DNA from: Minisyncoccota bacterium
GTDB taxonomy: Bacteria > Patescibacteriota > Minisyncoccia > Phycocordibacterales > UBA5272
DNA: 64,000 nt
Assembly (NCBI GenBank): GCA_046350775.1
Contig: JAXLZS010000001.1
Span: forward strand, 545,838-609,837
Reading direction: 5' to 3'
Of this stretch, positions 53,622 to 57,932 are shown piece by piece. Positions within the stretch are counted from its first letter, which is position 1. Every line of letters starts with the position of its first letter. Below the pieces are notes generated by a model. It had not been told where the DNA came from. It made no database searches and saw only the letters and a program-made list of their open reading frames with translations. Position numbers and translations under genes: made by a program.

Positions 53622-55147
53622 AGAGTTTGATCCTAGCTCAGGATGAACGCTGGCGACGTGGATAAGGCATGCAAGTCGAACGGAACTAATCACACGGAAG
53701 CATAAACAAAGTTTGAGTAGCAATACAAGGATGGAGTTTATGTGGAAGAGTGACAGTTTAGTGGCAAACGAGGTAGTAATATTTAGGAACATACCCCATA
53801 GTCTCGGATAACCGACCGAAAGGTCGACTAATACGAGATGGTCCGGTAACGGTAAAGATTTATCGCTATGGGAGTGGCCTGAACAGTATCAGCTAGTTGG
53901 TAAGGTAATGGCTTACCAAGGCTATGACGCTTAGGGGAGGTGAGAGCCTGGCCCCCACCGATGGGACTGAGACACGGCCCATACACCTACGGGTGGCTGC
54001 AGTCGAGAATCTTCCACAATGGACGAAAGTCTGATGGAGCGACGTCGCGTGATGGATGAATCACTTAGGTGCGTAAACATCTTTTATGAGGGAATAAGTT
54101 TATTGAAGGTACCTCATGAATAAGGACCTGCTAAACTCGTGCCAGCAGCAGCGGTAATACGAGTGGTCCGAGCGTTATCCGGAATTATTGGGCGTAAAGG
54201 GTCTGTAGGTTGCATGGTTAGTCTCTCGTTAAATCTTCAAGCTTAACTTGAAGCCCGCGGGGGAAACGGCCAAGCTAGAATATGCGAGGGGTGTGCGGAA
54301 CTCATAGTGTAGGGGTGAAATCCGTTGATATTATGGGGAACACCAAAAGCGAAGGCAGCACACTGGCGCATTATTGACACTGAAAGACGAAAGCGTGGGT
54401 AGCGAATGGGATTAGATACCCCAGTAGTCCACGCCCTAAACGTTGCTCTCTCGCTATTAAGAGTATCGACCCTCTTAGTGGCTTAGCTAACGCGGTAAGA
54501 GAGCCGCCTGGGAAGTACGAGCGCAAGCTTAAAACTCAAAGGAATAGACGGGGAGACGCACAAGCAGTGGATTATGTGGTTTAATTCGACGGTAAACGAA
54601 GAACCTCACCAGGATTTGAAACTAAGGAGAAAGGTCTAGAAATAGATCCCTCGCAAGACCCCTTAGCAGGTGATGCATGGCCGTCGTCAGTTCGTGGTTT
54701 GAGCTGTTCCCTTCAGTGGGGTAACGAACGCAACCCTCATCGTATGTTACAAGTGTCATACGAGACTGCCCCTCATCGGGGGAGGAAGGCGAGGATGACG
54801 CCAGGTCAGCATGTCCCTTTGACATTCTGGGCTACACACATAATACAATCGCAATGACAGCGGGTCGCGACGGGGTAACCCTGAGCCAATCCTCAAACAT
54901 TGCGCCAGTTCGGATTGAGGGCTGCAACTCGCCCTCATGAAGTCGGAATTGCTAGTAATTGCGGGTCAGCTATACCGCAGTGAATACGTTCTCGTCTCTT
55001 GTACTCACTGCCCGTCAACTCAAGGGAGCCGGGGGTACCCAAAGGCTTGAGCAATCAGGACTAAGGTAAAATCGGTGACAGGGAGTAAGTCGTAACAAGG
55101 CACGGCTAGCGGAAGCTGGTCGTGGATTAATTCAATTTGAAAAATCG
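53622..55147 (+). rRNA. rrs: 16S ribosomal RNA of normal length (about 1.5 kb) with no insertions. It has a divergent 3' end that lacks CCUCC.
   Basis: Starts AGAGTTTGATCCTAGCTCAGGATGAACGCTGGCG. Internal GTGCCAGCAGCAGCGGTAATAC and GTCGTAACAAGG. The 3' end is ...GGATTAATTCAATT where bacteria normally have GGATCACCTCCTT. Confidence 0.92.
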
Positions 55148-55369
55148 TGCACACGCTATAGCGTGCATGCATTTGTCGAACAAATCTTTTGATTTCGTAA
55201 AAGTTTATTAGAACTCAAAACTAATCGAGATACTTCGAGATGTATCAAAAGTCGCGTGCTAAATAGAGATAATATTTATCTCGCAGGATAAATCGCGCTA
55301 GAAGCGGAGCAAAAGAAAGGTGTATAAATTTTATGTTGATTCTATATTTTATTCTTCAAAAAAGAAATT

Positions 55370-55393
55370 AAAACTCCTAGTAACAGGAGTTTT
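55370..55393 (+). terminator. Hairpin in the region downstream of the 16S gene.
   Basis: aaaactcct-agtaac-aggagtttt. Its 3' flank AGTTTTAATTTTGTTG recurs at 56843. Confidence 0.35.
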
Positions 55394-55486
55394 AATTTTG
55401 TTGCTATTTTTATTGTATTGTTGTATAGTATTAATACTACTAAATTAATAGTAGTATTACATAATCATTAACATAAATAAAAATAT

Positions 55487-56011
55487 ATGAACAATAAATT
55501 CGTTTTAATAATAAATGGGCCTATAGATTCAGGATCGAGAAGGGTTGTAGAAATTTTAATGGAAAAATTAAAAAGAGTTTTTTTAGCTTCTGCTAATAAA
55601 ATTAAATTTTTAATTTCCGATTATACTCCAGATAAAGATAGAAAAATTATTCATGAATCAGTTTTATTTTTAGCAGAGAAAATGCTTCAAAATGATATCT
55701 CGTTAATCGTGGAAGGTGGATCGGTAGAACAAGAGAATTTAAATAAAAAGATAAAAGATTTAGCTAATAAAGAAAATATAAAAATCATTACAGTAAATAT
55801 TGAGTCACCAGTAGAAGTATTGAGAGAGAGGTTTTTAAAAAGACTGGAAAAATCAGCAACATCAGGACAAAAAGCTAGCGTGTTTGATGAAGAGGGATTT
55901 ATGAAAAGAGTAAATGCTTATTTTGATCTTAAAAATCCTGAAGACGCAACATTTGATTCAAGCGTCGAAGCCCCAGAATCAATTGCAAAAAAGATATTAT
56001 TATTAATTTAA
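55487..56011 (+). CDS. Hypothetical P-loop-kinase-like protein with a degenerate Walker A.
   Basis: LIINGPIDSGSRRVVEIL in place of GxxxxGK[ST]. Size and the LIVEGG segment are reminiscent of AAA_33/zeta-like kinases. Confidence 0.35.
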   Translation: MNNKFVLIINGPIDSGSRRVVEILMEKLKRVFLASANKIKFLISDYTPDKDRKIIHESVLFLAEKMLQNDISLIVEGGSVEQENLNKKIKDLANKENIKIITVNIESPVEVLRERFLKRLEKSATSGQKASVFDEEGFMKRVNAYFDLKNPEDATFDSSVEAPESIAKKILLLI

Positions 56012-56019
56012 TACATTTT

Positions 56020-56826
56020 ATGAAAATTTTAATAATGGCAGATATTCATCATGGTAATAATGTAAATTATGAATATCTAAATGGAAAAGATTATATAAAT
56101 GTATTTGGTGAAGAATTCAAAAATGTTTATAAGAAAATACAACCATTAACAAAAGAAGTAGATTTAGTTGTTAATCTGGGAGATTTAATTCAAGATGAAA
56201 ATAAAGAAAAAGATATTGCGCTATATAAAGAAGCATTATCTCTTTTAGAAGAAAACAATTCTAAAAAGATACATTATGTTTTAGGTAATCATGATTTAAG
56301 AAATCTGGAACATAAAGATTTAAATATTATTTTAGATAGAGAAAAAGAAACATATTCGTTTGATTTGGATGGATATCATCATATTATTCTTTCCGCAAAG
56401 AGAGATGATAGTTTATTGAATACGGAAGGGTATCATAGAGGTAAAGAGCAATATTTTGTAGAGGATAAAGATCTTAAATGGCTAGAAGAAGATTTAAATA
56501 ATACAAAATTACCAACAATTATTTATTCACACTATCCAATTGACGAACAAGGATTTACAAATAATTATTATTTTAAAAATTTACCAGAAAGTGGGAGGTT
56601 GCAAAATAGAAAAATCGTTAGAGAAATTTTAGAAAAATCTAAAAAAGTAAAAGCTTTCTTTTCAGGGCATATTCATTTTTATAATAAAGAAATTATAAAA
56701 GATATAGAGTATATTAGCATTCCTTCTTTCTCAGAAAATGATGGAGAAGGAAAACCAAATCATTTATTAGCGATAATAACAATAGAAACTAATATTATTA
56801 TAGATTTAATAAAGATACAAAATTAA
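56020..56826 (+). CDS. Calcineurin-like metallophosphoesterase.
   Basis: ADIHHGN, GDLIQD, GNHD, GHIHF motifs. Confidence 0.7.
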   Translation: MKILIMADIHHGNNVNYEYLNGKDYINVFGEEFKNVYKKIQPLTKEVDLVVNLGDLIQDENKEKDIALYKEALSLLEENNSKKIHYVLGNHDLRNLEHKDLNIILDREKETYSFDLDGYHHIILSAKRDDSLLNTEGYHRGKEQYFVEDKDLKWLEEDLNNTKLPTIIYSHYPIDEQGFTNNYYFKNLPESGRLQNRKIVREILEKSKKVKAFFSGHIHFYNKEIIKDIEYISIPSFSENDGEGKPNHLLAIITIETNIIIDLIKIQN

Positions 56827-56870
56827 GACCTCTGACAACAAGAGTTTTAATTTTGTTGTATAATTAATCC

Positions 56871-57275
56871 ATGACTAATCATCAGCATCTTTTTCGTTAT
56901 ATAAAAAATAAAACATCCTCTGGATCTTCAAAGGAAGAAATTAAATCTATATTGATGGAAGTTGGCTGGAAAGATGAAATTTTGGAAGAGGCTTTTATTA
57001 TTGTAGAAGAAAAAGAAAGAAAGAGAAAAAATAAATTTAAAAAAGCTGGATTTTTGATATTTATATTTTTAATTTCAGCAATTTTGTTTTTTAGTTTTTT
57101 GTTTTATCAGAAAAATGAAATGAATGAAAGATTATATAGACAGAAAGAGATAAAAATAGAAACTGTAGAAAATATTAATCCAAATCTTAGTCAGCAGGAG
57201 TATGTTGAAAAGATGTATGGGAAAGAAAGAGTTTATTCTGCTACCACTTCCTCGACTTCTGTTATTAGAAATTAA
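56871..57275 (+). CDS. Hypothetical single-TM protein.
   Basis: TM segment AGFLIFIFLISAILFFSFLFY. Confidence 0.4.
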   Translation: MTNHQHLFRYIKNKTSSGSSKEEIKSILMEVGWKDEILEEAFIIVEEKERKRKNKFKKAGFLIFIFLISAILFFSFLFYQKNEMNERLYRQKEIKIETVENINPNLSQQEYVEKMYGKERVYSATTSSTSVIRN

Positions 57276-57277
57276 TC

Positions 57278-57808
57278 ATGTTAAAAAGTCTACAAAATAT
57301 ATTTCAACAAAAGTTTTATAGAAAATTATTTATAATTTTAAATATTATTTTTCTTTTAGTTTATTTTTTCTTTACCAATTTTTTTTCAGCTGTCAAGATT
57401 TTTAATGCGCCTCTTTTTTCTCAGTCAGAAAAATGGAGTATTTTTTTTAGGTCATTTTTTGACATTTCTAGTTTAGAAAATATTTTAATGTTGACGCTGG
57501 CAATTCTTTTTATTTTATCTTTATCCTTATTTTCTATTTTATTACTGGTGCTTTTTAGTAGTTCAAAGAAAATATATAAGAAAAAGAGTTTTTTAGGAAT
57601 CGTTGGTATTTTTATATCTGTATTAGGTCTTTCTTGCGCTACTTGTGGAATTGGTCTTCTAGCCTCTCTTTTGTCACTTTTCGGACTTTCTGGACTTGTG
57701 ATTTATTTTCCTCTCCATGGCCTAGAATTTGGCTTTTTAGGGCTTTTAGTATTAAATATTAGCAATTATATCTTATTAAAGAGAATTAAAAATCCATATA
57801 TTTGCTAG
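57278..57808 (+). CDS. Hypothetical polytopic membrane protein.
   Basis: Four or five hydrophobic helices with no recognisable motif. Confidence 0.4.
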   Translation: MLKSLQNIFQQKFYRKLFIILNIIFLLVYFFFTNFFSAVKIFNAPLFSQSEKWSIFFRSFFDISSLENILMLTLAILFILSLSLFSILLLVLFSSSKKIYKKKSFLGIVGIFISVLGLSCATCGIGLLASLLSLFGLSGLVIYFPLHGLEFGFLGLLVLNISNYILLKRIKNPYIC

Positions 57809-57859
57809 ATCCCATTTATTGCTCAAAGTGGCTTTTTGTGATAAAATGTAAAAACATTT

Positions 57860-57932
57860 GCGCGAATAGCTCAGCTGGTAGAGCACTCGACTGATACTCG
57901 AGCGGTCCCAAGTTCGAATCTTGGTTCGCGCA
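57860..57932 (+). tRNA. tRNA-Ile (anticodon GAU).
   Basis: Acceptor GCGCGAA/TTCGCGC. D-arm TAGCTCAGCTGGTAGAGCA. Anticodon stem-loop CTCGA-CTGATAC-TCGAG. T-arm CCAAG-TTCGAAT-CTTGG. CCA is not encoded. Confidence 0.85.

Follow-up and report, generated by a model that had tools for sequence, protein, structure and literature searches.

A solitary 16S rRNA gene with tRNA-Ile(GAU) nearby in a Minisyncoccota bacterium: a probable fragmented rRNA operon with gene cassettes in the former spacer

The canonical bacterial rRNA operon has the gene order 16S-tRNA-Ile(GAU)-tRNA-Ala(UGC)-23S-5S, as in rrnA of E. coli, and excision of the pre-16S RNA is normally guided by a long leader/trailer helix (RNase III-type). 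A looser arrangement is found in Borrelia burgdorferi, where 16S-tRNA-Ala is followed by open reading frames (ORFs) and then by a tRNA-Ile-23S-5S tandem, with the 23S gene within a few kilobases. Here we describe an rRNA locus in a 64,000-nt stretch of the genome of a Minisyncoccota bacterium (contig JAXLZS010000001.1, positions 545,838 to 609,837; the whole stretch is called the window hereafter), in which a 16S gene stands without 23S or 5S and is followed at some distance by tRNA-Ile(GAU). Unlinked 16S and 23S genes are widespread and conserved within clades, and the passages of the survey considered here name Patescibacteria among the clusters in which these genes are exclusively unlinked (Brewer et al., bioRxiv 10.1101/705046, later in ISME J). 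The same main-text passages mention tRNA genes once, as the commonest content between the 16S and 23S genes.

The organism is a Parcubacteria-type bacterium of the candidate phyla radiation (CPR); its relatives are labelled Parcubacteria, Paceibacterota or Pacebacteria, and ribosomal protein L30 is absent from the ribosomal-protein gene cluster. We consider it likely that its rRNA operon is fragmented, with a monocistronic 16S gene, 23S and 5S genes elsewhere in the genome, a former spacer tRNA-Ile that is transcribed separately, and gene cassettes lodged in the old spacer.

The solitary 16S gene and its distant tRNA-Ile

The 16S gene (53615-55137, + strand) matches Rfam RF00177 over model positions 1-1533 with 1333.6 bits and is of full length, without insertions. 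The tRNA-Ile gene, with anticodon GAU, lies at 57860-57933 (+) and was recognized by both ARAGORN and Rfam (73.1 bits). The 2722 nt between them hold four ORFs, all on the strand of the 16S gene, and the only other RNA gene in the window is tRNA-Asn(GTT/GUU) at 62161-62233. Rfam detected neither 23S nor 5S in the entire 64 kb, including 53.6 kb upstream and 8.9 kb downstream of the 16S gene. Thus the solitary 16S gene, and a tRNA-Ile(GAU) about 2.7 kb downstream behind four ORFs, as described in the initial annotation from the sequence letters, were both recovered.

That annotation had regarded a 23S gene immediately beyond the window as the observation that would count against its reading. 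A contig from the same population (L001; related contigs and loci are designated by L numbers), 99.88% identical to the window over 8441 nt, reaches the equivalent of position ~72910. The 8.9 kb past the right window end contain protein genes only (Cu-ATPase, DsbD_2, MsrA/B and others) and no 23S, and the tRNAs on L001 are the two of the window. Any downstream 23S gene is at least 17.8 kb, and any upstream one at least 53.6 kb, away from the 16S gene, which is thus unlinked under the definition that requires the closest 23S to be over 1500 bp from the 16S 3' end. A standard operon with its 23S gene just outside the window has the prior expectation for bacteria in its favour and nothing else; it is refuted for 17-53 kb on either side by the protein-coding extension and the rRNA-free upstream sequence, and we regard it as practically out of the question. 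In Rfam searches over the window, L001 and 28 related loci, neither 23S nor 5S of this organism was located, and a 23S gene appeared in locus L089 alone; a regular-expression search for 23S 5' motifs over the related loci again returned L089 as the sole case, and a search for 23S core motifs in loci L001-L035 gave no matches. Remnants of 23S, tRNA-Ala or other known RNAs between the 16S gene and tRNA-Ile were also considered and rejected, as an Rfam E-value scan of 53300-58600 returned noise only.

Breaks and misjoins at rRNA genes are frequent in metagenome assembly, and many of the related contigs end at the 16S gene; a chimeric join at this conserved gene could give the false appearance of a solitary 16S. 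However, three contigs from other samples and assemblers (L008, L009 and L010) cross the 16S 3' end, ORF1 to ORF4 and tRNA-Ile at 99.97-100% identity, and in a scaffold of the nearest relative, L159, the 16S gene is flanked left and right by the same genes. The agreement of the three contigs means that the arrangement is not an assembly chimera, and such an artefact is highly improbable.

The wider comparison is based on a metagenome scan anchored on the 16S 3' end GGATTAATT, which is carried by at least 120 metagenomic 16S loci (L036-L155), forming 114 clusters at 95% identity. No 23S was found by Rfam in 24 of 25 related loci with 2.7-14.6 kb of downstream sequence, and none was found by Rfam downstream of 16S in the fetched flanks of L159 or L156 either; the unlinked state is conserved across the clade. 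The exception is L089 (NPIE01025487.1), which has at 330-3041 the order 16S, a 166-aa ORF overlapping the start of tRNA-Ile, tRNA-Ile, tRNA-Ala, a 238-aa ORF, a 225-aa membrane ORF and 23S, and which serves as an intermediate or ancestral-like (outgroup-like) state. These comparisons bear out one of the two options offered in the initial annotation, a split operon whose spacer has been invaded by genes, and its remark that CPR rRNA loci are atypical agrees with published work (bioRxiv 10.1101/705046).

Of 48 distinct lineages in which 3 kb or more of sequence is available after 16S, 23 have the tRNA-Ile(GAU) gene within 3 kb downstream of it. The linked tRNA lies on the 16S strand in 19 of these and is inverted in 4, at distances of 126-4067 nt. 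With one such tRNA in a genome of ~0.6-1 Mb, chance would account for ~0.5%, and the proximity is accordingly a legacy of the ancestral operon and no coincidence. A tRNA-Ile unrelated to the rRNA operon, standing 2.7 kb away by accident, would fit the promoter-like and terminator-like sites that this gene has of its own (see below), and no tRNA is present within ~10 kb of 16S in L156 and L013 or in the 2.4 kb available for L070. Nevertheless, the recurrence of the same tRNA across independent lineages in a sample of 114 clusters, the identical synteny of L159, where tRNA-Ile stands at 1275 nt, and the intact 16S-Ile-Ala-23S order of L089 strongly disfavour this explanation, and we consider it very unlikely. 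Comparison with related genomes, which the initial annotation had proposed, thus revealed both the clade-wide proximity of 16S and tRNA-Ile and the general lack of a neighbouring 23S.

Several further observations were made on the surroundings of the 16S gene in the clade. A gene for RsmI, the 16S C1402 2'-O-methyltransferase (59661-60374, +; NCBIfam TIGR00096, 223 bits, cut-off 167.9), is located 4.5 kb downstream of the 16S gene, and homologues occur 4-8 kb after 16S in seven other loci (L056, L076, L112, L122, L144, L147 and L151) and in L159. RsmI modifies the very 16S near which its gene sits, an arrangement that recurs across distant members of the clade. Twenty loci of a sister group with the 16S tail CCAATTGGA (L053, L063, L068, L076, L078, L079, L087, L102, L105-L107, L112, L117, L121, L122, L125, L129, L131, L150 and L151) have the gap between 16S and tRNA-Ile filled by an opposite-strand gene for a membrane protein of 101-605 aa, the N-terminus of which resembles T4SS pilins. 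The first tRNA after 16S is tRNA-Pro(CGG), at 1.2-2.3 kb, in seven loci with the tail CAATTTGAA (L059, L066, L081, L084, L094, L101 and L152). In L111 (6347-9234) the 16S gene is divided into two Rfam matches by an insertion of ~750 nt, with a borderline match to group II intron D1-D4 nearby; rRNA insertions of this kind are known for CPR bacteria.

Predicted transcription and processing signals

Upstream of the 16S gene, a single block ~230 nt before the gene is strongly conserved in L075, L097 and L061 (16S ~94% identical), amid flanks that are not conserved. At 53380-53408 (+) in the window, this block combines TTGCAT (53380-53385), a 17-nt spacer and the extended -10 element TGcTAATAT (53400-53408). 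Its composition and conservation suggest that it acts as the 16S promoter (P16S). A leader block, GGTGCGCTTTTTGTAAATAAAATATAGATTAA (53481-53512, +), is kept in the window and the same three loci; by resemblance, it may be a boxA-like antitermination element. The last 58 nt of the leader (53557-53614, +) are complementary to the trailer segment 55300-55355 (+), the core of which, CGGAGCAAAAGAAA, is invariant in L013-15, L156 and L159. The RNAduplex energy of the two halves is -45.8 kcal/mol, compared with -24.1 +/- 3.5 for 300 shuffles (best shuffle -35.3), and relatives show little or no variation in either half; extended flank complementarity that is kept in this way characterizes a pre-16S processing stem. 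In addition, the trailer block TTCGAGATACTTCGAGATGTATCAAAAGTC (55225-55254) is invariant in the window, L013-15, L156 and L159, and a trailer hairpin (55148-55171) shows compensatory changes, with CACGC-TATA-GCGTG in the window and CACCG-AATT-CGGTG in L013-15; these features identify the trailer as a structured RNA that is conserved.

Nine nucleotides past the processing stem starts a terminator-like hairpin, T1 (55364-55403, +), with a 15-bp stem, an A-rich 5' flank and a T-rich tail, TTTTGTTGCTATTTTT. The stem is AT-rich, with just 3 G-C pairs, and folds at -16.1 kcal/mol (z = -4.65). Together with the hairpins T2 and T3 described below, T1 has the stem-loop and U-rich tract of intrinsic terminators. 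In over 20 related loci the 16S gene is followed, at ~190-280 nt, by a hairpin of the A-tract/stem/T-tract type, variable in sequence and constant in position, as expected of terminators. A terminator-like site was found within 600 nt after 16S in 61 of 107 loci, while 23.6 were expected from shuffles. In the fragmented operon, the first transcription unit would thus run from P16S through a leader of ~200 nt, the 16S gene and the trailer and end at T1, and the leader/trailer stem would guide excision of the pre-16S RNA. These predicted signals suggest that the 16S gene is transcribed and processed as a unit of its own.

The tRNA-Ile gene is likewise provided with candidate signals. A promoter-like site (PtRNA; 57819-57847, +), consisting of TTGCTC, a 17-nt spacer and the extended -10 element TGaTAAAAT (57839-57847), ends 12 nt before the tRNA, and an A-tract/stem/T-tract hairpin, T3 (57949-57980; -7.4 kcal/mol, z = -3.24), lies between the tRNA and a convergent gene of 129 aa. 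In 31 of 42 related loci the 60 nt before tRNA-Ile(GAU) contain the motif TGnTAnnnT, compared with 9.2% of control windows (p ~1e-23). Even in L103 and L113, where the gap is only ~180 nt, a hairpin followed by TGTTATAAT stands between 16S and the tRNA. These data suggest that tRNA-Ile is independently expressed in most lineages; the last unit of the locus would comprise PtRNA, tRNA-Ile and T3, and the tRNA would be the former spacer tRNA that stayed near 16S. The independent tRNA that the initial annotation had offered as the alternative to a split operon is thus supported as well, with hairpins that delimit separate units, and the two options are compatible.

Alternatively, the 16S gene, the four ORFs and tRNA-Ile could be co-transcribed from the 16S promoter as one long operon, in which the hairpins would be processing or stability elements and the cassette genes would be transcribed at rRNA level. 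All elements lie on one strand, no terminator is seen between ORF4 and the tRNA, the conserved leader block might be an antitermination site, and 19 of the 23 linked loci have the tRNA in the same orientation as 16S. However, T1 and T2 have 15-bp stems with T-rich tails, a terminator-like hairpin and an extended -10 element separate 16S from the tRNA even at ~180-nt gaps, the tRNA has its own -10 motif in most loci and is inverted in four lineages, and an intervening gene runs on the opposite strand in the 20 sister-group loci. We therefore hold a single long operon to be unlikely.

Some points weigh against separate units in a fragmented operon. The position of 23S elsewhere in the genome is deduced from its absence over ~71 kb. 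The promoters and terminators are predicted from consensus sequences and energies in a genome of 33.5% GC, where such motifs are frequent, and a regional promoter scan gave fewer sites than its shuffles (18 vs 25). The reverse strand is equally rich in terminator-like sites (63 of 107 loci), which weakens the strand-specific argument, although this frequency fits bidirectional A/T-flanked hairpins. ORF4 has no terminator before tRNA-Ile, and the tRNA could mature from ORF3-ORF4 read-through. Finally, the three other genus-level relatives whose sequence continues beyond the terminator (L156, L013 and L070) lack tRNA-Ile near 16S, and the linkage is therefore easily lost. In a fragmented operon some read-through would be possible, both from the ORF3-ORF4 unit into the tRNA and across the AT-rich T1.

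The 3' tail of the 16S gene, GGATTAATTCAATTTGAA (55124-55141, +), is without the anti-Shine-Dalgarno (anti-SD) motif CCUCC and is identical in L013-15, L156 and L159; in the window an SD core precedes only 1 of 59 genes. Among the loci listed, two main tail variants occur, each an inverted repeat: TTCCAA|TTGGAA in 49 loci and TTCAA-T-TTGAA in 24. This pattern suggests selection on a palindrome or mini-hairpin at the former anti-SD position, and such a tail could function in 30S maturation or translation initiation.

Duplicated terminator-like hairpins and gene turnover in the putative former spacer

The initial annotation had noticed a 16-nt motif, AGTTTTAATTTTGTTG, that occurs downstream of 16S and again before the third ORF. 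Both copies exist, and the second lies at 56843-56858 as reported; the first is at 55388-55403, and not at 55385. The true shared identity is 17 nt, GAGTTTTAATTTTGTTG. These are the only exact copies in the window; a third match, at 45550, has 2 mismatches and lies within a coding region. At up to 2 mismatches 0.39 matches are expected, and 3 were reached in 1 of 100 shuffles. A dispersed repeat family was considered and rejected, as there are two exact copies only and near-matches (7, against 2.9 +/- 1.8 expected) are at chance level. The copies form the 3' arm and tail of T1 and of a second terminator-like hairpin, T2 (56817-56858, +; -13.6 kcal/mol, z = -3.65), and the two hairpins are ~79% identical over ~39 nt, including both arms and the loop. 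On this comparison, T1 and T2 are best described as paralogous terminator hairpins, and not as a chance 16-mer.

The nearest relative indicates what the duplicated hairpins delimit. L159, a 612-kb scaffold with a 16S gene 98.9% identical to that of the window, has the synteny SecD-SecF-ABC-FtsX-YknX-DsbB-like-16S...ORF3-ORF4-tRNA-Ile...RsmI-MurA-tRNA-Asn in common with the window. It lacks ORF1 and ORF2 and has the order 16S-T-TATAAT-ORF3-ORF4-tRNA-Ile; its single 16S terminator is directly followed by TTTTGTTGTATAATTAAGGTATGGCTAATCATCA, which is the T2-TATAAT-ORF3 junction of the window. The difference is thus a segment of ~1.45 kb, comprising the predicted promoter P1, ORF1 and ORF2 and bracketed by T1 and T2, and the proposal that the motif represents a duplicated regulatory or junction sequence holds, since the paralogous hairpins bracket exactly the segment missing from L159.

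The direction of this change can be read in two ways, as the T1 and T2 copies would be either the mark of a cassette insertion in the window or the direct repeats across which L159 deleted ORF1-ORF2. Both fit, and a deletion appears somewhat more likely, because L156, which is less closely related (16S 96.4% identical), has the same left junction, 16S-T-GCTATTTTT...-hairpin-ORF1, and because L159 retains only a remnant of the alanine racemase gene. This remnant (L159 11254-11373) comprises just the last 40 codons of a gene that is intact in the window (58508-59671), and L159 is also without the window ORFs at 46986-47390, 51773-52768 and 52841-53308. Gene content has thus changed recently on both sides of 16S between these two organisms.

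ORF1 (55487-56011, +) encodes a small AAA_33-like kinase-fold protein of 174 aa. Its score against AAA_33 (PF13671; E=0.003, 18.4 bits) is below the gathering cut-off of 27, and its Walker A motif, GPIDSGSR, which the initial annotation had rightly called degenerate, departs from GxxxxGK[ST]; the protein falls short of a P-loop kinase on both counts. Homologues of ~50% identity have GPxxSGKT at this position and do match PF13671. Given the sub-threshold score and the altered motif, ORF1 is therefore related to the family but has diverged from it, and it may not be an active kinase. Homologues in L156 and L013 are 82-85% identical. The promoter-like site P1 (55401-55429, +) consists of TTGCTA, a 17-nt spacer and TATAGT, and its GTTGTATA(G/A)T is also found upstream of the ORF1 homologue in L013. 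An 11-bp hairpin (55432-55459, +; arms TAATACTACTA / TAGTAGTATTA) lies in the ORF1 5' leader, and the segment 55421-55483 moves with ORF1: it is 78% identical over 69 nt in L013 (hairpin at ~1945-1972) and is also present in L156. This hairpin, which travels with the gene between genomic positions, may be a cis-regulatory element.

ORF2 (56020-56826, +; 268 aa) is a calcineurin-like metallophosphoesterase, as had been proposed (Pfam PF00149, E=1.7e-17; 65 bits against a cut-off of 21.5). Its family is small, with 25 proteins at E<=1e-10, in the alignment of which D8, H10, D48, GD(54-55), GNHD(89-92), H171 and GH(216-217)/H219 are invariant; matches to the cyclic-nucleotide phosphodiesterases SpdA and CpdA were weak and below cut-offs. 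The second unit would run from P1 through the structured leader, ORF1 and ORF2 to T2. A split Pnkp-like polynucleotide kinase-phosphatase pair for RNA repair was considered for ORF1 and ORF2 and is not supported, as a single NCBIfam match speaks for it (E=0.04, 12 bits against a cut-off of 750).

The window, L013-15 and the distant L019/L020 (16S ~69-72% identical) all have a phosphoesterase gene after 16S. However, no 16S gene lies within 10 kb of the phosphoesterase in five GTDB relatives (L023, L025-L027 and L029), and among the at least 120 loci of the scan only L113 has a phosphoesterase near 16S, as one weak match. Neither L022 nor L024 has 16S at its contig end, which is formed by a tRNA fragment and a hairpin. 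A conserved functional link between the phosphoesterase and 16S was accordingly rejected as a rule, and their adjacency is treated as partly ancestral synteny or chance. L019/L020 (GCA_016307145.1, JADMIO011301953.1) is a CPR-like contig of 60 kb, in which 16S has a normal anti-SD and EEP and Metallophos genes come after it. The contig numbers of its assembly exceed 1.3 million, and it probably stems from a symbiont or contaminant sequenced along with a host genome.

The remaining two ORFs encode predicted membrane proteins, as the initial annotation had read them. ORF3 (56871-57275, +; 134 aa) has one hydrophobic segment, a predicted membrane span, and a homologue of 65% identity in the equivalent place in L159. 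The TATAAT that had been noticed before its ATG lies at 56859-56864 (+; P2), only 6 nt before the start codon at 56871, and the TATAAT-ATG arrangement is kept in L159 (~9585-9600), directly after the single 16S terminator. This spacing suggests that the mRNA has no leader or almost none, in an organism that lacks SD/anti-SD pairing. ORF4 (57278-57808, +; 176 aa) is polytopic, with about four hydrophobic segments and a conserved CxxC in a membrane span, and has 41 homologues of ~176 aa each. It adjoins tRNA-Ile in L159, and in L160 it adjoins a tRNA cut by the contig end. The third unit would comprise P2, the near-leaderless ORF3 and ORF4, without a terminator of its own.

The gene that directly follows the 16S terminator differs among close relatives: it is ORF1 in the window and L156, ORF3 in L159, a 375-aa ORF in L070, a 233-aa ORF in L075 and a 256-aa ORF in L154, and in L013 a 235-aa ORF is followed by the phosphoesterase and then by ORF1. 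At least five different genes thus occupy this place across seven genus-level genomes, and the position is a hot spot of gene turnover. A more speculative proposal, which we regard as possible but not probable, is that the stretch from the 16S terminator to the tRNA-Ile promoter is, in this CPR clade, a privileged landing site with fast turnover, where cassettes recombine at the hairpin and leave duplicated terminators as scars, and that selection might hold 16S and tRNA-Ile close together despite their separate transcription. The five or more genes in seven genomes and the tRNA within 3 kb in 23 of 48 lineages fit this idea. As a separate observation, 16S-ORF1 is followed by a type IV pilus cluster in L156 (ERZ4198739), and the ORF4-tRNA pair of L160, from the same assembly, stands at a contig end behind PilM/PilO/T2SSE; this layout suggests a large block of pilus genes, or an inversion, with a breakpoint in the hot spot after the 16S terminator.

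Elsewhere in the window, the ribosomal-protein superoperon is broken (6577-21024): EF-Tu, S10, L3, L4, L23 and L2 come first and are followed by S12, a 1496-aa GDSL-lipase/Peptidase_S74 protein, and then S8, L6, L18, S5, L15, SecY and Map; the genes from S19 to S14 do not occur at this locus, and L30 is lacking as well. Three proteins (186-914, 1020-4574 and 11525-16015), two of them very large, contain a Peptidase_S74 domain, an intramolecular chaperone of the type usual in tail-spike proteins and endosialidases of phages.

Comparison with described rRNA loci

The locus can be placed in a series of operon decay, from L089, linked and with ORFs in its spacers, through L103 and L113, with 16S, terminator, promoter and tRNA-Ile within ~180 nt, and L159, with two genes in the gap, to the window with four. 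It adds detail on how a spacer tRNA and regulatory signals redistribute after an operon is split, and it offers a presence/absence polymorphism, bounded by duplicated terminators, between organisms whose 16S genes differ by 1.1%. In practice, this clade will be missed by long 16S-ITS-23S amplicons (ITS, internal transcribed spacer) and by profiling based on operons, assemblies of its genomes break at the lone 16S gene, and annotators should expect neither 23S nor tRNA-Ala beside it.

Compared with the canonical operon, the window keeps 16S followed by tRNA-Ile(GAU) on the same strand, and the leader/trailer stem around 16S. It differs in having no 23S, 5S or tRNA-Ala nearby, with neither 23S nor 5S within a few hundred nucleotides, and in its 2.7-kb gap with four ORFs, two terminator-like hairpins and separate promoter-like sites. 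The Borrelia burgdorferi locus resembles it in a spacer expanded to the kilobase scale with protein genes in it, and in spacer tRNAs that are split between the halves; however, the tRNA-Ile of Borrelia goes with 23S, whereas that of the window stays with 16S, and the 23S gene is more than 17 kb away. Closer to the window is L089, a related CPR contig with the same GGATTAATT 16S tail and likewise an ORF between 16S and tRNA-Ile, which differs in keeping tRNA-Ala and a 23S gene that starts 2.6 kb after 16S.

With respect to the 16S tail, the anti-SD motif was detected in only 48% of Parcubacteria according to the passages considered of Tsurumaki et al. (2022, RNA 28:1041, PMC9297842), and the window, with a 16S gene lacking CCUCC and genes lacking SD motifs, resembles the anti-SD-lacking Parcubacteria subgroup described there. 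The loss of the anti-SD is thus already published and was set aside as a new finding; those passages of PMC9297842 do not mention the inverted repeat GGAUUAAUUC(C)AAUU(U)G(G)AA, which is conserved in place of the anti-SD in at least 120 loci of the present comparison.

The closest parallel for the locus as a whole is the unlinked rRNA of Brewer et al. (10.1101/705046), whose passages considered here describe the same clade-conserved separation of 16S and 23S, far over 1500 bp in the window, together with a small genome and symbiont-type features. On that point the window is a well-resolved example of what has been published for CPR bacteria and changes nothing. Those passages classify linkage only, and the fate of the spacer tRNA, the architecture of promoter, stem and terminator, the proximity of 16S and tRNA-Ile and the duplicated-terminator cassette do not appear in them. 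As far as the cited passages go, the proximity of 16S and tRNA-Ile with separate promoters, the graded expansion of the spacer, and a cassette bounded by duplicated terminators are refinements that the window and its relatives add to the described systems.

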